Source of the DNA: an uncultured Spirochaetaceae bacterium
GTDB lineage: Bacteria; Myxococcota_A; UBA9160; UBA4427
NCBI GenBank assembly: GCA_964515335.1
Contig: CAZETS010000005.1
Location: 10,174 to 74,173, forward strand
DNA length: 64,000 nt
Direction of reading: 5' to 3'
Below the pieces are notes generated by a model that saw nothing but the letters and a program-made list of their open reading frames with translations, searched no databases and was not told the origin of the DNA. A program made the translations under genes and the position numbers. Of the stretch, positions 40,389 through 48,769 are shown in pieces (the first letter of the stretch is position 1; each line of letters starts with the position of its first letter).

Positions 40389-41228
40389 ATGTCCGAAACA
40401 CTTCCGCTGCCCTTCATCCCCGACCACCGCCCCCCCGACGACCCCGGCGCCGACCCGCTGCTCTTCGCGTTCTGGCGCCGCGAGCTGCTCGTCACGACCG
40501 ACAACTCGGTGCCGGCCGTCGGCGTCATCGATGACCACGACATCGAGGCCGTGCGCACCCAGTACCTCGGCCGCCTCGGTGAACGCCACTGCTTCTCGGC
40601 GCAGCTCGACGAGGCCTTCCGGCCGCCCGAGGGCCTGGCGCTGCGCGATCTCCGCATGCTCTTCGGCGCCTTCGACGAGACCCTGCACACCCTCGCGGGA
40701 CGGGCCGTGCAGATCGTCGAGTGGGAGCGTACCCACCAGTTCTGCGGTGCTTGCGGGGAGCGCACCGTCCCCTCGAAGAACGACCGCTCGCGCACCTGTC
40801 CGGACTGCGAGCTGCCCGTCTACCCGCGGCTCTCGCCCGCGATGATCGTGGTCGTCGAGCGCGGCGACGAGATCCTGCTCGGTCGCTCGAAGCACTTCCC
40901 GGCCGGCATCTACAGCACGCTGGCCGGCTTCGTCGAGCCGGGCGAGAGCGCCGAGCAGGCGGTGATCCGCGAGGTCTGGGAGGAGACGCGCATCGTGGTC
41001 GGGGACGTCCGTTACTTCTCGAGCCAGCCCTGGCCGTTTCCCAACTCGTTGATGCTCGGCTTCACCGCCCAGTACGAGAGCGGCGAGATCGACACCCGCT
41101 ACGACGACGAGGTCGAGGCCGCGGGCTGGTTCCACGTCGACGCGATGCCGAATACGTTTCCCGGCAACGTCAGCATCTCGCAGTGGCTCATCCAGGACTT
41201 CATCCGGCGCAAGCGGGGCAGCGCCTAG
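40389..41228 (+). CDS. nudC: NAD(+)/NADH diphosphatase
   Basis: Zinc ribbon CGACGERT...CPDCE, Nudix box GFVEPGESAEQAVIREVWEETRI, and the NudC-specific SQPWPFPNSLMLGF. Confidence 0.85.
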   Translation: MSETLPLPFIPDHRPPDDPGADPLLFAFWRRELLVTTDNSVPAVGVIDDHDIEAVRTQYLGRLGERHCFSAQLDEAFRPPEGLALRDLRMLFGAFDETLHTLAGRAVQIVEWERTHQFCGACGERTVPSKNDRSRTCPDCELPVYPRLSPAMIVVVERGDEILLGRSKHFPAGIYSTLAGFVEPGESAEQAVIREVWEETRIVVGDVRYFSSQPWPFPNSLMLGFTAQYESGEIDTRYDDEVEAAGWFHVDAMPNTFPGNVSISQWLIQDFIRRKRGSA

Positions 41229-41249
41229 CACCGGGCGCGGCGGTCACGA

Positions 41250-42098
41250 CTACCCGCCGGCCGCCTCGTCGCCCTTCTCGCCGAAGCGGGGGGCGTGGCG
41301 GCCGTAGACGTGGTCGCCGATCCGCTGCATGCGAGCCATCTCGTCGGCGTCGAGGGGACCGGCGTCGAGAGCGCGGATGGCTTCCTGCATCTGCTCGCGA
41401 TCGGCGGGGCCGCAGAGCACCATGCTCACGGCGGGGTTCGAGAGCGCGAACCGGTAGCAGTCCCGGGCGGGCGGCGGCTCTTCGCCGGCGGGCATCTTCT
41501 TGGGATCGAGCAGCTGCCCCCAGCGCGTCGCCGTGTAGCTGACGATGCCCGGTCGCGGCGATTCGGGGACGTGGGGGAAGACATCGCGCTCGGCGCCCCG
41601 GTTCGCCGCGTTGTAGCGCAGCATGAAGGCACCGAACGGGCTCTCCTTGGCGGCATAGCGCCGGAAGTGATCCTGCAGAGATGGGCGGTTGTGGGTGCTC
41701 ATCATCAGGTGCCGCACCTTGCCCTTCTCGACCAGGCGGCGGGCCGCATCGATCAGGGCCTGGCCGGGAGGCCGGTTCCACATGCCGAGCAGCAGGAAGT
41801 CGAAGTACTCGACGCCGCTGCGCCGCAACGCCACGTCGATCGAAGGCCCGAGCAGAGCGGCGACGCGTGTGTAGGACTGCACGGTCAGCACGACGCCCTC
41901 TCGATCGCGGCGCGCCACGTGCCGGATGGCGCGCCCGAAGGCGGGCCTGCGGATCGACCCCCAGTAGAGGTAGTTGATGCCCTGCTCGACGGCCTCCTCG
42001 ATGAACGCCGGGTCGCCGGTGAAGCTGCTGCCGATGCCGAGTCGTGAGACCCGAAGCCCGGTCTCGCCGAACGGGACCGGTGTACGGAAATCGGACAT
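41250..42098 (-). CDS. Aldo/keto reductase family oxidoreductase
   Basis: GLRVSRLGIGSS..., INYLYWG and VEYFDFLLLG patterns. The ATG at 42098 is preceded by AGGAGAA. Confidence 0.75.
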   Translation of the reverse strand: MSDFRTPVPFGETGLRVSRLGIGSSFTGDPAFIEEAVEQGINYLYWGSIRRPAFGRAIRHVARRDREGVVLTVQSYTRVAALLGPSIDVALRRSGVEYFDFLLLGMWNRPPGQALIDAARRLVEKGKVRHLMMSTHNRPSLQDHFRRYAAKESPFGAFMLRYNAANRGAERDVFPHVPESPRPGIVSYTATRWGQLLDPKKMPAGEEPPPARDCYRFALSNPAVSMVLCGPADREQMQEAIRALDAGPLDADEMARMQRIGDHVYGRHAPRFGEKGDEAAGG

Positions 42099-42171
42099 GG
42101 CGTTCTCCTGTGGTGCGTGGGGCCTGGCCGGGCAGCTTCGCGTGCGCCGGAGTCGCGTGGGCGGTCGTCCC

Positions 42172-43023
42172 CTACGGCAGCCCCGCCCCGGCCACGTCCA
42201 CCTCCACCACCTCGATGCGCCCATCGCGCTCGCGCTGGCAGTACTCGGGATTGCTGTCGCCGGCCGTGCACACCAGCAGGTGCCTGCGCTCGGGCCCGCC
42301 GAGCATGCACGCAAACGCCTGGCGCTCGACCTCCACCTTGTGGGTGATCTCGCCGCCTTCGAGGACGCGGAAGCAGCCGTGACTGACCGGCGACGCGACC
42401 CAGACGGCGCCCTCGGCGTCGAGCGCGATGCCGTCGGGCAGCACGCCGTCGAGCCGGGCCCAGACGCGGCGATTCGAGAGCGAGCCGTCGTCGGCCACGT
42501 CGAAGGCGCTCAGGCATTGGCCCATCGTCTCGCCGATGATCAGTGTGCGGCCGTCGTCGGTGATCACGGTGCCGTTCGGGAAGGCGAGATCCCCGGCCAC
42601 CACCCGCGCACCGCCGTCCGGCGTCACCAGGATCAGGTCGGCGTTGCGCCGCTCGCCGCCGCCGTGGAGATCCCAGCCGAAGTTGCCCACGTAGGCGTTG
42701 CCGCGCGCGTCGACCACCATGTCGTTGCAGTGGAAGCCGGCGAGTGGCGAGAGGTCGGCGTGCAGGACGAGCGTTCCGTCGGGCTCCATGCGGAGCACTC
42801 GCCGGTCCTGCATGGAGACGACGAGCATGCGGCCGTCGGGCAGCCAGCCGAGCCCGGAGGGGTCGTTCTCGACGAACGCGACCTCCTCGCGCTTGCCGTC
42901 GAGGTCGACGGTCAGCACGCGCTGGCTGTGCATGTCGGAGAAGTAGAGCCGCTCGTCGCGCCAGCGCGGCCCCTCTCCGAAGGCCACATCCTCGAGGAGC
43001 GTGGTCGTCCCGAGAGTCTGCAT
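42172..43023 (-). CDS. SMP-30/gluconolactonase/LRE-like beta-propeller protein
   Basis: GEGPRWRDERLYFSD, PSGLGWLPDGRMLVV, NDMVVDARGNAYVGN, FPNGTVITDDGRTLII, PDGIALDAEGAVWVA. Confidence 0.8.
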   Translation of the reverse strand: MQTLGTTTLLEDVAFGEGPRWRDERLYFSDMHSQRVLTVDLDGKREEVAFVENDPSGLGWLPDGRMLVVSMQDRRVLRMEPDGTLVLHADLSPLAGFHCNDMVVDARGNAYVGNFGWDLHGGGERRNADLILVTPDGGARVVAGDLAFPNGTVITDDGRTLIIGETMGQCLSAFDVADDGSLSNRRVWARLDGVLPDGIALDAEGAVWVASPVSHGCFRVLEGGEITHKVEVERQAFACMLGGPERRHLLVCTAGDSNPEYCQRERDGRIEVVEVDVAGAGLP

Positions 43024-43055
43024 CCTCTACTCCTCGTCGCTCGCCGGCGCCGGGA

Positions 43056-43544
43056 TCAGCTCGACGTCCGGGCGATCGTCGCGAACGCCTCGCGCACCTC
43101 GTCGGGCGCCTGGACGAGCTCGACCAGCACGCCCTCGGCTCCGATCGGGGCGGCCTCGTTGCCCTTGGGGTGGATGAAGCAGACGTCGAACCCGGCGGCG
43201 CCCTGGCGGATGCCGCCCGGCGTGAAGCGGACGCCCTGGCCCTCGAGCCACTCGACGGCGGCGGGCAGGTCGTCGATCCACAGGCCCACGTGGTTGAGTG
43301 CCGGGTCGTGCACCTTGGGCCGGCTGTCCGGGTCGATGGGCTGCATGAGGTCGACCTCTACCTTGAAGGGGCCGTCGCCCGCCTCGCAGATGTCCTCGTC
43401 GACATTCTCGCTCTCGCTCCGGTAGCTGGACGCGTACGAGAGCCCGAGGGTATCTACCCAGAAGCGCCGCAGCTTCTGCTTGTCGAGACCGCCGACCGCA
43501 ATCTGCTGGACACCGAGAACCTTGAAGGGGCGGGGGGAGGGCAA
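43056..43544 (-). CDS. VOC (glyoxalase/bleomycin-resistance/epimerase) family protein
   Basis: [25 protein letters not shown]...CFIHPKG...VLVELVQ. Confidence 0.7.
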
Positions 43545-43587
43545 CGCACTGCTCCTTTCGCTGAGATCGTCTGAGTGGTGGGTTCGC

Positions 43588-43604
43588 TCCGCCCGCAGGG
43601 CGGA
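43588..43604 (-). terminator. Hairpin after rlmE, preceded by stop codons in all three frames
   Basis: On the minus strand: TGACTAGACTGACTGA, then TCCGCCC-tgc-GGGCGGA (7-bp stem). Confidence 0.4.
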
Positions 43605-43617
43605 TCAGTCAGTCTAG

Positions 43618-44241
43618 TCAGTCGTCACGCTCGGCGGTGCCCCGATAACCCCGTGCCAGCAGGTACCGCTCGCTGCTGCCCTTGCGGGTCGCCCCTGGCT
43701 TGACGGTCTTGACCTGCGCGAACGCCGCGCGCATCCGGCGCTGGAATTCCTGCGCCTCCGGGCAGTCGAGGAGCTTCACCAACAAGGCGCCATCCTCCCG
43801 AACCAGCAGGGGAATCAGCCCATCGACCGCCTCGAGGAGGCGCTCTTCGGCGGCCCGGTCGGTCTCGCGGATGCCGGTCAGCTTGGGGGCGGCGTCGGAC
43901 AGCAGCACGTCGCAGCGCCCGCCAAGAACTTCGCGAATGCGTTCGCAAATAGCCGGATCCTCGATGTCCCCCACCATTGCGAACACGTTCGCCAACTCGA
44001 GGGGCGGGTCGATGGCAACCCGGTCCACGCCGACCACGCGCCCCTGCGGGCCCACGGCCCGGGCCGCCTCCTGGAGCCAGCCACCCGGCCAGCAGCCGAG
44101 GTCCACCACCCGCTGGCCCTTCGCGAGCAGGCGGTGGCGGCCCTGCAGCTCGGCGAGCTTGTAGACGGCCCGCGAGCGAAAGCCCTCGCGCTTGGCACGC
44201 TGGTGGAAGTGGTCCTTGCGGTCGTAGCGGGCGACGGCGGA
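43618..44241 (-). CDS. rlmE: 23S rRNA 2'-O-ribose U2552 methyltransferase (FtsJ/RlmE); start codon unresolved
   Basis: RYDRKDHFHQRAKREGFRSRAVYKLAELQGRHRLLAKGQRVVDLGCWPGGW...VLLSDAAPKLTG...LVKLL is collinear with E. coli RlmE. The conserved N-terminal 44 codons lie between the in-frame rplC TAG (44244..44242) and the first canonical start (GTG at 44109). Confidence 0.7.
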   Translation of the reverse strand, partial: SAVARYDRKDHFHQRAKREGFRSRAVYKLAELQGRHRLLAKGQRVVDLGCWPGGWLQEAARAVGPQGRVVGVDRVAIDPPLELANVFAMVGDIEDPAICERIREVLGGRCDVLLSDAAPKLTGIRETDRAAEERLLEAVDGLIPLLVREDGALLVKLLDCPEAQEFQRRMRAAFAQVKTVKPGATRKGSSERYLLARGYRGTAERDD

Positions 44242-44889
44242 CTACTTCTTCGGTGCCACGGCGCGTCGCACACGGACGAGGCCGTTGTTGTGGCCGGGCA
44301 CGGCGCCGCGCACGAACAGCAGGTTGTTGTCGGCGTCGACGCGCACCACCTCGAGGTTCTGCACGGTCACGCGCTCGGCGCCCATGTGGCCGGCGTGCTT
44401 CTGGCCCTTCCACACCTTGGCGGGATAGGCGCCGGCGCCGATCGAGCCGGGGTGCCGGAAGTACTCGTGGGTGCCGTGGGTCTTCTTCTTGATCGCGAAG
44501 CCATGGCGCTTGACGACACCCTGGTAGCCGCGCCCCTTCGAGGTGCCGATCGCGTCGACGCGTTGCCCGGCCTCGAAGATGTCGGCCTTGATGACCTGGC
44601 CGACTTCGATCTCGCCCACCTCATCGTCGGAGAGGCGGCTCTCGGCGAGGTGCCGCTGGGGCTCTACGCCCGCCTTCGTGAAGTGGCCGGTCTCGGGCTT
44701 GTTGAAGAGGTTCGCGCGGCGCTCCCCGAAGCCGAGCTGCACCGCCGAGTAGCCGTCGGGCCCGTCGCTCTTCTTGATCTGCACGACGGTGTTCGGGCCC
44801 GCCTCGAGGACGGTGACGGGGACGGCCTCCCCGGTCTCGTTGTAGACCTGGGTCATGCCGAGCTTTCGGCACAGCAGTTCGATGGACAT
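44242..44889 (-). CDS. rplC: 50S ribosomal protein L3, located outside any S10-type ribosomal protein operon
   Basis: LLCRKLGMTQVYNETGEAVPVTVLEAGPNTVVQIK...KPETGHFTKAGVEP...GTSKGRGYQGVVKRHGF...HPGSIG...KHAGHMGAERVTVQNLEVVRVDADNNLLFVRGAVPG is collinear with E. coli L3. Confidence 0.9.
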   Translation of the reverse strand: MSIELLCRKLGMTQVYNETGEAVPVTVLEAGPNTVVQIKKSDGPDGYSAVQLGFGERRANLFNKPETGHFTKAGVEPQRHLAESRLSDDEVGEIEVGQVIKADIFEAGQRVDAIGTSKGRGYQGVVKRHGFAIKKKTHGTHEYFRHPGSIGAGAYPAKVWKGQKHAGHMGAERVTVQNLEVVRVDADNNLLFVRGAVPGHNNGLVRVRRAVAPKK

Positions 44890-45132
44890 GGTGGGACTCC
44901 CGACTCCGTCGATTGGACCACCCGAAGGGTGTTCGTCGCGGGTCTGCGAGGGGATTGTCTGACTGCCTGTCCGGGCGGGGGCACGCCTTGCACGCAACCA
45001 CCCGCCCCGTTGCGGGGTCCCGAGTCCTGCTAGCCTCGGCTGCCCGCATCGCCGGCCCGGGCTCCCGGCCCGGATGGCATCCACCCGGCCTGGCTGCCCG
45101 GGGGGGCCGCAATATAGGAAGACGCACCCCGG

Positions 45133-46836
45133 ATGTCCAGGCGACCGTCGAGTCGAGAGCCGAGCCGACCCGCCGGCGTCCGGCCCCTGCTCGTCCTCGC
45201 CCTCGACGGCGCCACCTTCGACGTGATCCGGCCCCTGGCGGCCGCCGGGCGGCTCCCCAACCTCGCCCGCTGGATCGACGAGGGCAACGCCGGGACTCTC
45301 GCCTCGACGACGCCGCCCGTCACCTTTCCCGCCTGGACGACCTTCATGACAGGCCTCTCCCCGGGCCACCACGGCGTCTTCGACTTCACGCAGAAGGTGC
45401 CGGGCGCCTACCGGATCCGCTTCGTGAACGCCTCGGACCGGGTCGGCGAGACGATCTTCGCCGGCGCGGCCCGGGCCGGCGGACGCGTGCTGGTGCTCGG
45501 CATGCCGGCCAGCCATCCCGTCGAGCAGCTGCCCGGCCTGTTCGTGCCGGGCTTCGACGCGCCGGTCTCGACCGGCAGCGACGCCGAGGCGACCAGCGAC
45601 CCGGACCTCTATCGCCGCATCGCGGCTCGCGCCGGGCCCTGGATGCGCCCCGACATCGACGAGTCCGCGCAGGGCGACGACTTCGCGGAGCGGGCCGTCG
45701 GAACGCTGCTGGCCCGTGTCGAGCGGAAGAAGCGCTTCGCGTTGGCGGCCCTCGACGAGATGAAGCGGCGCGACGGCGTGCGTCCCGATCTGGTCACCAT
45801 CGTGTTCGCCGAAAGCGACACCGTCGGCCACCACTACTGGCGCGACCACGACCCGAAAAGCCCGCGGCACGACCCCGCCGCCTCCCCGGCCCGCCGGGAC
45901 GCGATCGCGGCGGTGTACGGCGCGCTCGACACGGCTTGCGGTGAGATCCGCGACGCCTACGGGGACGACGCCGCGTGCCTGGTCGTCTCGGACCACGGCA
46001 TGGGGGGCGCGGCCCGCGAGATCGTCCACCTGAACCGGCACCTCCGCGACTGCGGGCTGCTGGCCCGGCGCTCCGAGCGCGCCACCGCCTTCGACGCGCT
46101 GGCCCGCACCGCCCGCGACACCGCGCTGCGCGTGCTTCCAGCGGCGCTCGCCCAGCGCATCTTCCGGCGCGCTCGCGGTGCGGCGGCGCGGCTCGAGAGC
46201 GCCGCCCGCTTCGGCGGAATCGACTGGTCGCGCACGCTCGCGTTCTCCGAGGAGGCCAATACCCTGCCGGGCGTGTGGATCAACCTGGCCGGCCGCGAGG
46301 CCGCGGGCTGCGTGGCGCCCGGCGACTACGAGAAGACGCGGGACCGCGTCATCGATGCCCTGGCGGGATGGCGGCTTCCCGGCGGCGGGCCCGTGGTCGC
46401 CCGGGCGGTCCGGCGCGAAGAGGTCTACTCGGGGCCGTTCGTCGACCGTGCCCCCGATGTGCTGGTCGAGCTCGCCCTCTCCCGGGGCTACGGTCTCTCG
46501 CTCGTTCCGACGCCCTGGGCGGCGGCGACCAGCGACTCGGCGCGAACGCTGTCCGAAGCCGAGCTGGCCGGAGGACGCGGGCGCGGCATGAACGGAACCC
46601 ATCGCAGCGACGGCATCCTGATCGACGTGCGAAAAAATGCGAACGACGAACAGGAACCGAGAAATCCGGCCCTGCCCGCCCGGCTGGCGGACGTCGCGCC
46701 CTTGATGGCGGACCTGATGGGGCTCGACTGGCGACCCGCGGCGGCGTCACCGGGCGACGGTCAGCGACGCGACTACACGGACGAGGAGGACGCCATCGTG
46801 GCGGGCCGGCTGCGCGCGCTGGGGTACCTCGAGTGA
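45133..46836 (+). CDS. Alkaline-phosphatase-superfamily enzyme (type I phosphodiesterase / nucleotide pyrophosphatase family)
   Basis: LLVLALDGATFD...TTPPVTFPAWTTFMTGLSPGHHGVFDF and IVFAESDTVGHHYW...LVVSDHGMG (metal-ligand blocks of the AP superfamily). Confidence 0.7.
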   Translation: MSRRPSSREPSRPAGVRPLLVLALDGATFDVIRPLAAAGRLPNLARWIDEGNAGTLASTTPPVTFPAWTTFMTGLSPGHHGVFDFTQKVPGAYRIRFVNASDRVGETIFAGAARAGGRVLVLGMPASHPVEQLPGLFVPGFDAPVSTGSDAEATSDPDLYRRIAARAGPWMRPDIDESAQGDDFAERAVGTLLARVERKKRFALAALDEMKRRDGVRPDLVTIVFAESDTVGHHYWRDHDPKSPRHDPAASPARRDAIAAVYGALDTACGEIRDAYGDDAACLVVSDHGMGGAAREIVHLNRHLRDCGLLARRSERATAFDALARTARDTALRVLPAALAQRIFRRARGAAARLESAARFGGIDWSRTLAFSEEANTLPGVWINLAGREAAGCVAPGDYEKTRDRVIDALAGWRLPGGGPVVARAVRREEVYSGPFVDRAPDVLVELALSRGYGLSLVPTPWAAATSDSARTLSEAELAGGRGRGMNGTHRSDGILIDVRKNANDEQEPRNPALPARLADVAPLMADLMGLDWRPAAASPGDGQRRDYTDEEDAIVAGRLRALGYLE

Positions 46837-47594
46837 GCGGCGCGCTCTCGCAACCGGGCGACCGCCCGAAGCTCTCGCTGGTGTTCCCCGTCTTCGACGA
46901 GGCGGCGAACGTCGGGGAGGTGATCGAGAGCGCCTGCGTGATCGGCGCGCAGCTCGTCGAGCGCTTCGAGGTCGTGGTGGTCGACGACGGCTCGCGGGAC
47001 GGCAGCGCCGACATCATCGACGCCTGGTCGGCGAGCGACGCGCGGGTTCGCGCGGTGCGGCACGGCGCGAACGCGGGCTACGGGGCGGCGCTGCGCTCGG
47101 GGCTGACCGCCGCCCGCGGCGAGCTGGTATTCTTCAGCGACGCCGACCTGCAGTTCGACCTGGCCGAGCTCGCCCGTCTGCTCCGCCACACCCGCGACTT
47201 CGACATCGTGGCCGGCTATCGCTCGCCGCGGTGCGACCCGTGGCCGCGCATCGTCATCGCCCGGGTCTGGGCGGCGCTGGTGCGCGTGCTCTTCGGCTTG
47301 CGGGTGCGCGACATCGACTGCGCGTTCAAGGTGTTCCACCGGCGCGTCGTCGACGAGCTGCCGCTCTCTTCGGTCGGCGCGTTCATCAACACCGAGCTGC
47401 TGGTGCGCGCCCGCGCGGCCGGGTTCCGCATCCAGCAGGTTCCGGTCAGCCACCGTCGGCGGCTCCGCGGTCGGCAGACCGGCGCGAGCCCCCGGGTGAT
47501 CGCGCGCGCGGCGGTCGAGCTGGCGCGCCTGTATCGCACCTTGCGCACGCCGCCGGTGGGCGGGCGCGCGGCCTCGCGGGCCGAGTCGGAGTGA
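46833..47594 (+). CDS. Family-2 glycosyltransferase (dolichyl/polyprenyl-phosphate hexosyltransferase-like)
   Basis: LSLVFPVFDEAANVGEVI...VVVVDDGSRDGSADI...NAGYGAALRSG...FFSDADLQFD. The GTG start at 46833 overlaps the upstream stop (GTGA). Confidence 0.85.
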   Translation: MSGALSQPGDRPKLSLVFPVFDEAANVGEVIESACVIGAQLVERFEVVVVDDGSRDGSADIIDAWSASDARVRAVRHGANAGYGAALRSGLTAARGELVFFSDADLQFDLAELARLLRHTRDFDIVAGYRSPRCDPWPRIVIARVWAALVRVLFGLRVRDIDCAFKVFHRRVVDELPLSSVGAFINTELLVRARAAGFRIQQVPVSHRRRLRGRQTGASPRVIARAAVELARLYRTLRTPPVGGRAASRAESE

Positions 47595-48769
47595 CGTCGC
47601 GCCCGTCGGCGCGCCGCGACGAGATCGCGCTGGCGCTCCTCGGCGCGTTTCCGTTTCCGCTGCCCCAGGGCTCGCAGATCTTCATGGCCGACCAGGCCCG
47701 CGCACTCGCGCGGGCGGGCGCACGGCCGACGCTCTTCACCTACGGGCGCGGACAGGGAGCCCCGCCGCCCGATCTCGACGTCGCGGCCGCGCCCGCCTGG
47801 ACGACACCGCGCGCGATGCGATCGGGACCCAACGCCGGCAAGCCGTTGGCCGACAGCGCACTGCTCGCAACCTGGACGCGCGCGGCCTCGCGGCAGCGCT
47901 TCGCGTTCGCGCTGGCCCACAACGTCGAGGCGGCCTGGATCGGGCTGCTGGCGAGGGCGAGAACCCGCGTGCCGGTCGTCTACGTCGCCCATACGCTGCT
48001 TCGTCACGAGCTCTCCGCCTACGCGCACCCGCGCTGGCGCAGGGTCCTCGATCGCACGGGTGCGCGCATCGATCACTTCGTGGCGCGGCACGCGGACGCC
48101 GTGCTGGCGCTCTGCGAAGAGGCCGCCGACGAGCTGGCCCCGCACGCACGCGGTCCGGTCGCAGTGATTCCGCCCGGACACGATCCGGCCGGGCCGCCGT
48201 CTTCCGCGGCGATCGACCGGGTCTGCGCGCACCACGATCTGCGCCCGCATGCGTTCTTCCTCTACACCGGAAACCTCGACGGCTACCAGGAGCTCGAGCT
48301 GCTCGCGGCGGCCGCGGGGCGACTCCCGGCGGGCGCACCGCCGGTCGCGGTTGCGACCCACGACGCGCCGGCCGCCGCCGCCGCGGCGCGCAGGCTCTCT
48401 CCGCTTCGCATCGTGTCGGTGAGCGCCTGGGACGAGATGCGCGCGCTCATACACGCCGCACGGGCGCTCGTGCTGACGCGCCGCCGGCCCGGCGGCTTCC
48501 CCGTCAAGCTGCTCAACTACATGGAGGCGGCACGGCCGATCGTCGCCTTCGAGCAGGTCGCCGTGGGGCTCCGGGACGGCGAGTCGGCCCGCCTGCTCGA
48601 CGCCGCCGCCGGGGCCGCGGACCTCGCCAGCGCGCTCACCGGCCTCGATCGCGAACCCGCGGCCGCCGAGCGGCTCGGCGCGGCCGCGCACCGGCACCTG
48701 CTCGACCATCACGGCTGGGAGGCGATCGCGCAGCGCACCCTCGAGCTGCTCGCGAAGCTTCGCGACTAG
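47591..48769 (+). CDS. GT-B-fold glycosyltransferase (GT4-like)
   Basis: FPFPLPQGSQIFMADQARALARAGA... at the N-terminus and C-terminal ...VLTRRRPGGFPVKLLNYMEAARPIVA (E-x7-E-like region). The GTG start overlaps the GT2 stop (GTGA). Confidence 0.7.
   Translation: MTSRPSARRDEIALALLGAFPFPLPQGSQIFMADQARALARAGARPTLFTYGRGQGAPPPDLDVAAAPAWTTPRAMRSGPNAGKPLADSALLATWTRAASRQRFAFALAHNVEAAWIGLLARARTRVPVVYVAHTLLRHELSAYAHPRWRRVLDRTGARIDHFVARHADAVLALCEEAADELAPHARGPVAVIPPGHDPAGPPSSAAIDRVCAHHDLRPHAFFLYTGNLDGYQELELLAAAAGRLPAGAPPVAVATHDAPAAAAAARRLSPLRIVSVSAWDEMRALIHAARALVLTRRRPGGFPVKLLNYMEAARPIVAFEQVAVGLRDGESARLLDAAAGAADLASALTGLDREPAAAERLGAAAHRHLLDHHGWEAIAQRTLELLAKLRD

Follow-up and report, generated by a model that had tools for sequence, protein, structure and literature searches.

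In the closest described cases of bacterial translational coupling, such as trpB-trpA and the coat-lysis pair of phages fr and MS2 (Huber et al. 2019, 2023; PMC6728339, PMC10666635), the downstream gene starts within a few nucleotides (nt) of the upstream stop codon, and reinitiation after termination drops steeply once the distance exceeds about 14-20 nt (PMC10666635). By what rules post-termination ribosomes select a restart site, and whether they inspect its start codon as 30S initiation complexes do, is unsettled (reviewed in PMC12548453). In Escherichia coli, AUA, AUC, AUU and CUG initiate at approximately 1-2% of the AUG level, and other codons at 0.1-1% (10.1101/063800). Here, we analyze a 64-kb stretch of DNA from an uncultured myxobacterium (contig CAZETS010000005.1; hereafter, the window) in which rplC, the gene for ribosomal protein uL3 (L3), is likewise followed within a few nucleotides by a second gene, rlmE, which encodes an FtsJ-family 23S rRNA 2'-O-methyltransferase but has no canonical start codon. 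Our comparisons among related genomes support the view that this non-canonical start is no local oddity but is shared across the clade and stable in evolution. We consider it probable that rlmE is expressed by termination-coupled reinitiation at a non-canonical codon, which would hold RlmE at a low ratio to L3.

Both genes lie on the minus strand. rplC occupies 44242..44889 (215 codons plus the stop), begins at ATG 44889..44887, and ends at a TAG (44242..44244) that in this lineage shares its reading frame with rlmE. Past the stop, an open frame of 207 codons continues in the rplC frame to TGA 43620..43618. The first canonical start after TAG is the GTG at 44107..44109 (codon 45), from which gene callers derive a 163-amino acid (aa) product; between the two there is no ATG, GTG or TTG. 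Because the preceding in-frame codons end at TAG, no canonical start can serve the gene in the window. The codon that we propose as the site of initiation or resumption is GTC (44233..44235), separated from TAG by a 6-nt non-coding spacer, TCCGCC (44236..44241). It is homologous to the ATG, GTG or TTG of relatives; the window's V-A-R-Y-D-R-K-D pairs with the M-A-R-Y-D-R-K-D of canonical relatives. With this start, rlmE would span 43618..44235 and comprise 205 codons plus TGA.

The peptide encoded after TAG matches the Pfam FtsJ profile PF01728 over its full length (positions 1-181 of 181, E = 1e-39) from residue 21, and its match to TIGR00438 begins at residue 10, so the conserved domain opens directly after the stop. 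Scores against the equivalog models fall below their cut-offs (162.8 versus 300.15 bits for TIGR00438 and 122.8 versus 269 bits for NF008390), and the best homologues carry the name RlmE-family methyltransferase. On sequence grounds, we classify the protein as a member of the RlmE family, presumably with specificity for U2552. The catalytic tetrad of RlmE is K-D-K-E, with K38 (E. coli numbering) as its first residue. The window protein aligns with the structures of FtsJ (1EIZ) and human MRM2; in the 1EIZ alignment, query residues 20-199 pair with chain residues 1-178, which places query K28 at E. coli K38 if the 180-residue chain represents, as we assume, E. coli residues 30-209. This lysine, that of the YKL motif, is encoded by AAG 44158..44160. 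D116, K156 and E191 and the S-adenosylmethionine (SAM)-binding motif DLGCWPGGW (DLGxxPGGW) are invariant in 29 homologues, and the full-length post-TAG peptide contains both the complete tetrad and the SAM-binding motif. A start at GTG 44109 would instead drop 44 conserved codons and, since Lys28 maps to K38, yield a 163-aa product without a catalytic residue.

An earlier, sequence-only reading of this locus had described a full-length L3 frame whose TAG is in frame with rlmE, the lack of ATG, GTG or TTG before GTG 44109, and a post-TAG segment corresponding to the conserved RlmE N terminus. Our reading of 44889..43618 on the minus strand and the profile matches bear out all three. The same account treated TAG as a genuine stop in the window, and this also holds: TAG ends 11 of the window's 40 long open reading frames (ORFs) and L3 orthologues of other species have TGA or TAA at the equivalent position, so TAG is an ordinary stop here. 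The window contains no tRNA or suppressor genes.

To place the locus among its relatives, we used a scan with one genome per species, which returned 80 loci from Myxococcota metagenome-assembled genomes (MAGs). Seventy-seven of these were anchored and analyzed, giving 78 loci with the window included; the anchor in every case was the invariant Tyr of Y-D/E/Q-R-K-D. In 75 of the 78, the L3 gene directly precedes rlmE. A canonical rlmE start (ATG, GTG or TTG) is present in 35, two or three codons 5' of the Tyr (M-A-(R)-Y-D-R-K-D). In the remaining 43, among them the window, there is none. Their start position is occupied by GTC (14 loci, including the window), CTG (9), ACG (5), GTT (5), GCG (4), ATC (3), ATT (2) or ATA (1). 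A count that requires no assignment of the start agrees with this: codons that differ from AUG or GUG by a single base are found at -2 or -3 in 43 of 43 loci and at -4 or -5 in 5 of 43, where the base rate per codon is 0.30. At three loci (L012, L035 and L043), no ATG, GTG or TTG is found upstream or within approximately 57-64 codons downstream. Because L3 (71/71) and the downstream glyoxalase gene (57/58) are canonical by the same test that rlmE passes in 35 of 78 cases, the missing start is specific to rlmE and far beyond chance.

Start-codon states are stable by clade on a neighbor-joining RlmE tree, and each codon type persists throughout deep clades. The clade of the window comprises 21 species, all of which have GTC, GTT or ATT at the start position except one, L020, which has ATG. 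Where the start-position codon changes, it shifts among near-cognates (GTT to ATT, GTC to GTT). The sequence-only reading had raised the question of whether the missing start is conserved among relatives, and the 43 loci answer it in the affirmative. We also observed CCC or GCC directly 5' of the start position (44236-44238 in the window) in 31 of the 43 non-canonical loci; a CC in this place occurs in several canonical loci as well (GCC ATG, CCC GTG).

The survey bears directly on whether rlmE is decaying in this lineage or is made as a truncated 163-aa protein from GTG 44109. Automated calls do give products of 163-195 aa in this clade. However, the truncated product would lack the catalytic lysine, the first downstream canonical start wanders from codon 20 to codon 80 among relatives, and the non-canonical state has persisted across the 21-species clade. 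Moreover, the codons upstream of GTG 44109 are under the same purifying selection as those of canonical genes: non-canonical and canonical loci have pN/pS values of 0.33 and 0.34 over the N-terminal codons and the window clade has 0.18, synonymous differences being close to saturation (pS 0.56). The stretch from the Tyr to DLG is 41 codons long in 78 of 78 loci. Because this segment is of constant length, is constrained as strongly as in canonical relatives and holds the catalytic lysine, comparative evidence indicates that it is translated and that the gene is selected as a full-length protein. We therefore assign decay or truncation a very small probability.

Loci without a canonical start differ from the others in the position of the L3 stop. 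Of the 43 non-canonical loci, 34 have the rlmE start position -4 to +18 nt from that stop, as do only 2 of the 32 canonical ones (Fisher p = 1.4e-10, a value that treats species as independent and so overstates significance). Among close relatives of the window, the spacer between TAG and the start position measures 4, 5, 6, 7 or 8 nt with both ORFs intact, and a spacer of such variable length must be non-coding and permits no fixed-frame entry from upstream. The window's own 6 nt falls inside the range of approximately -8 to +20 nt of coupled pairs; its codon, GTC, is not among the canonical starts expected of such pairs.

Short spacing and the non-canonical codon are in turn associated with the absence of a Shine-Dalgarno sequence. 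Mean anti-Shine-Dalgarno pairing is -2.5 kcal/mol at the tightly spaced non-canonical loci, compared with -3.4 kcal/mol at random background positions and -4.35 kcal/mol at canonical loci, which do possess a Shine-Dalgarno. In the window, pairing 5' of GTC amounts to -1.9 kcal/mol against the same background, i.e., no Shine-Dalgarno is present. We considered whether AAGTAG might act as a Shine-Dalgarno-like element and explain the conservation of TAG, and rejected this, as its -1.9 kcal/mol is weaker than background. The exceptional L020, with ATG in a clade of GTC, GTT and ATT, has a spacing of 125 nt and a GAGGAG Shine-Dalgarno. Nine non-canonical loci are also widely spaced (23-111 nt), with a mean pairing of -5.5 kcal/mol. 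A search of these nine for an upstream ORF (uORF) abutting the start position identified one, in L073: a 20-codon uORF (ATGACTGGG...CGGCGGTAA), approximately 60 nt 5' of rlmE, ends 4 nt before the CTG, and L3 ends 111 nt upstream of that CTG. This uORF may now serve as the upstream cistron in place of rplC.

An in-frame TAG within an apparently continuous coding sequence could have other origins, two of which the sequence-only reading had listed alongside non-canonical initiation. One was an assembly or sequencing error, or a recent mutation, at the junction. Four independent assemblies (L001-L004; three from ENA and one from JGI) agree base for base across the junction, and 48 blocks of the contig collection list exactly this L3 protein. 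Distinct species (L005, L009, L016 and L086-L090) have TAG-TCCGCC-GTC or a junction very close to it, and the group of P0123, to which this also applies, includes a marine metagenome record from PRJEB4352. The identical assemblies together with the same junction in other species and unrelated data sets refute this proposal, and we regard the probability of an error as negligible.

The other was low-level read-through or recoding of UAG to give an L3-RlmE fusion, which would be the active form in this lineage. TAG is in the rlmE frame in the window and in L005, L009, L016, L086-L090, L045, L049 and L081, and the L3 stop is strongly biased toward TAG, which is used in 41 of the 43 non-canonical loci. 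However, the three possible frame relations occur at 11:13:10 among the 34 tightly spaced loci (chi-square p = 0.81), and in L006 and L091 (5 nt) and L092 (8 nt), which are close to the window, the genes are out of frame and both intact. No fused L3-FtsJ protein is present among the best 120 homologues of either protein, RNAalifold found no conserved structure with compensatory pairs (0) within 70 nt on either side of the junction, and no X XXY YYZ slippery motif is visible in the junction sequence. The presence of L3 orthologues that stop at this place with TGA or TAA argues in the same direction. Because spacer insertions and deletions of 1-2 nt generate all three frames, the in-frame TAG is, by this comparison, incidental, one of three equally frequent relations, and the in-frame stop is accordingly not a conserved property of the junction. 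Out-of-frame relatives and the lack of fused homologues leave read-through unsupported as a selected mechanism, and we consider it highly unlikely. TAG is also the L3 stop in 61 of 75 loci overall, whereas rlmE itself stops at TAG in 29 of 78; the preference at L3 could be phylogenetic inertia or could reflect a role specific to UAG and release factor RF1 in the restart.

Two further routes into rlmE were tried and set aside. Translational hopping that takes off at AAG and lands on the AAG of R-K-D is at odds with a last L3 codon that is not always AAG and with the conservation, as protein, of the Y-D/E/Q-R that would be skipped. An rlmE start inside rplC in another frame (the idea of a 1-nt deletion, corresponding to the 'MSRAW...' of P0001-P0012) is absent in half of the clade, and where upstream starts inside rplC do exist, their positions are not conserved. 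No known RNA family was detected in the window or at the junction at Rfam gathering thresholds, and matches at E <= 1 were at chance level.

We propose that rplC and rlmE form a two-gene operon in which ribosomes that end rplC translation at UAG would stay on the mRNA and restart 6 nt downstream, at GUC 44235..44233, to make a full-length, active RlmE of approximately 205 aa. Restart at so poor a codon would be inefficient and would thereby keep RlmE at a small, fixed fraction of L3. Such a ratio would suit an enzyme of which the cell needs far fewer molecules than of a ribosomal protein, with its supply tied to ribosome production. Reinitiation is favored because 34 of the 43 spacings lie where it works experimentally (PMC10666635). 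Termination-reinitiation or non-canonical initiation was the remaining option in the sequence-only reading and fits the data, although that reading missed both the candidate codon at 44235..44233 and the clade-wide nature of the arrangement.

Alternatively, 30S subunits might initiate de novo at GUC, independently of rplC and with a sensitivity to IF3 or ribosome maturity like that of the AUU start of infC. The nine non-canonical loci with spacings of 23-111 nt and a strong Shine-Dalgarno are consistent with such stand-alone initiation, as the near-cognate codons at these loci apparently work in the absence of tight coupling. In E. coli, 30S subunits with assembly defects are less strict about the start codon (PMC6868393), which would lend the gene of an assembly factor a feedback logic. 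However, neither the window nor its clade has a Shine-Dalgarno 5' of GTC, and a GUC without one should be almost silent under this scheme. It also leaves unexplained the strong association with a stop 2-9 nt upstream. We consider stand-alone initiation improbable.

The start codon might also be irrelevant. An unrecycled 70S ribosome could slide a few bases past the stop and resume elongation with an elongator tRNA, reading GUC as Val. The window clade has the features that this predicts, namely no Shine-Dalgarno, no canonical codon and a stop 4-8 nt upstream, and GTC or GTT would then be kept as a Val codon. Resumption of this kind would, however, leave the reading frame poorly defined and would not be usable by widely spaced loci with a Shine-Dalgarno. 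Nor does it account for the start-position codons, which in 43 of 43 loci are one mismatch from AUG or GUG and shift among near-cognates. Because of these two features, we favor recognition by initiator tRNA and rate resumption as somewhat less probable again than stand-alone initiation. On GUC, GUU and GCG, the initiator tRNA would form a G·U pair at position 1 and face one further mismatch; the alternative for these codons would be an elongator tRNA on an unrecycled 70S ribosome.

Several observations weigh against termination-coupled reinitiation as we have formulated it. GUC, GUU and GCG are two positions away from AUG and outside the start codons of translation table 11, and GTC could be conserved simply as a Val codon. 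Eight of the non-canonical loci have spacings of 23-81 nt with no nearby upstream stop, so coupling is not the whole story. All genomes compared are MAGs, and our statistics take species as independent even though start-codon states cluster on the tree. In addition, a 2025 review of translational coupling documents no reinitiation at such non-canonical codons in coupled genes. We therefore hold the proposal in its strongest form only tentatively, as a possibility that we would not yet expect to prove correct: that in dozens of species, and through long stretches of evolution, a housekeeping gene is expressed solely by restart after the rplC UAG, without a Shine-Dalgarno, at GUC, GUU, GCG or ACG and at a ratio of approximately 1:100 to 1:1000.

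The L3 gene on which this coupling would depend has the hallmarks of an ordinary rplC. Its product scores 274 bits against the equivalog model TIGR03625 (cut-off 142.9; model positions 2-202 of 202), matches PF00297 and is collinear with the uL3 chain 7sfr_D (residues 6-211 versus 6-211, 217 bits, E = 2e-63); in all, 58 uL3 sequences from solved ribosomes matched it at E <= 1e-30. A GGGAG Shine-Dalgarno, read directly from the sequence, lies 7 nt 5' of its ATG (44897..44901, minus strand), and the GGAG is kept among relatives. The gene does not belong to an S10 operon (rpsJ-rplC-rplD): tblastn with E. coli queries found no S10, L4 or L2 homologues within the window or the sequences flanking the fetched loci, in agreement with the sequence-only reading, and no second rplC or S10 operon occurs in the same regions. 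Its neighbors are a divergent phosphodiesterase-family gene and rlmE, and two complete MAG chromosomes (CP070734.1 and OZ245002.1) as well as a 6.25-Mb contig (of ERZ26167894) keep the order rplC-rlmE-glyoxalase. Because the protein is collinear with ribosomal uL3, and the gene has its own Shine-Dalgarno and canonical start, a conserved leader hairpin and kept synteny, it looks like the cell's ordinary rplC, moved out of the S10 operon in an ancestor of the clade. The earlier suggestion that this L3 is a ribosomal protein paralogue finds no support in these comparisons, since its alignment with the uL3 of solved ribosomes runs end to end and its score exceeds the equivalog cut-off.

Upstream of rplC, the 5' leader at 44904..44944 (minus strand) has the form CGCGA / GAAC-stem-loop-stem-GGTCC / AATC, with a hairpin at approximately 44915-44934. 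The motif is conserved in L005-L016, L021 and L045, with compensatory changes in two stem pairs, and has no match in Rfam; the table consulted in Eckert & Weinberg 2020 lists no L3 leader. The leader flanks (CGCGA / AGAACG ... CGGUCC / AUC) resemble E. coli 23S rRNA at nt ~2573-2616, in the helix 93 region, and the pattern AGAACGN{5,20}CGGTCC has one match in the 23S gene, at 2587-2611 (0.01 expected). By this resemblance, the leader may be an rRNA mimic for L3 autoregulation. It is operon context, separate from the question of the rlmE start.

Synteny around the gene pair is kept among the window (~41000-47600), L001 and L085. Phosphodiesterase (PF01663) and GT2 and GT4 glycosyltransferase genes lie upstream in divergent orientation, and genes for glyoxalase-4, an SMP-30/gluconolactonase-like protein, a NudC-like NUDIX protein and a PilZ protein follow downstream. 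The gene order is retained in the 6.25-Mb contig at 71% L3 identity.

Public calls for rlmE are inconsistent in this clade. Those of 163-195 aa (P0004, P0016, P0017, P0022, P0029, P0033, P0046, P0087, P0090 and P0102) are truncated and lack the catalytic lysine, whereas the Arg- or Ser-rich N-terminal extensions of P0001-P0012 and P0034 are out-of-frame readings of the rplC 3' end. P0119 is also among the inconsistent annotations, and one rlmE call, in CP070734.1, starts at CTG. Start sets limited to ATG, GTG and TTG, or to table 11, will systematically mis-annotate such genes.

The arrangement suggests a simple way to tie an enzyme of late 50S assembly to ribosomal-protein synthesis at a fixed low ratio. 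If our proposal is correct, post-termination ribosomes would be far looser about start codons than initiating 30S subunits, and evolution would have exploited this looseness to fix the amount of an rRNA-modifying enzyme at approximately 1:100-1:1000 relative to a ribosomal protein. The restart codons GUC, GUU, GCG and ACG would then lie outside the recognized starts of any bacterial code table. Spacing, Shine-Dalgarno strength and codon identity vary together across the 43 species-level loci, which provides testable sequences for the study of restart-site choice.

Our literature search found nothing on rplC-rlmE operons or non-canonical rlmE starts, and the comparison with known systems is therefore one of parts. 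As in the reinitiation pairs studied experimentally (PMC6728339, PMC10666635), a Shine-Dalgarno is dispensable at most of these loci and spacing is no more than ~20 nt. The pairs described there, however, use ATG, GTG or TTG, typically in ATGA or TGATG overlaps, whereas the rlmE loci have GTC, GTT, CTG, ACG, GCG or ATH 2-9 nt after TAG. In its codon, rlmE more closely resembles infC (encoding IF3) and pcnB, in which a conserved non-canonical AUU start keeps expression low in a potentially IF3-dependent manner (10.1101/063800). But infC has a Shine-Dalgarno and initiates de novo at a fixed AUU, while the rlmE codon varies by clade and is in some cases two steps from AUG; unlike infC, most rlmE loci lack a Shine-Dalgarno and abut a stop.

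The prfB +1 frameshift and programmed read-through likewise place an in-frame stop inside a seemingly continuous coding sequence. Both need a conserved frame, a slippery site and a stimulator, in contrast to the evenly distributed frames of rlmE and a junction in which we found no slippery site or structure. E. coli rlmE (ftsJ), which has an ordinary ATG start, encodes the same enzyme family with the same catalytic residues but is paired with ftsH, in place of the rplC-rlmE-glyoxalase context of the window. Finally, E. coli depleted of ribosome recycling factor (RRF) reportedly shows unscheduled translation downstream of stop codons, in work attributed to Janosi in 1998 and Inokuchi in 2000, and there, too, translation restarts close behind a stop although no canonical start signal is present. 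Related work is available under PMC7538156 and PMC9955659. To our knowledge, restart by unrecycled ribosomes is known only as a defect phenotype or from constructed reporters, and not as the conserved, natural means of expressing a housekeeping gene. The rlmE loci would thus represent a variant that joins two known phenomena, translational coupling and non-AUG initiation.

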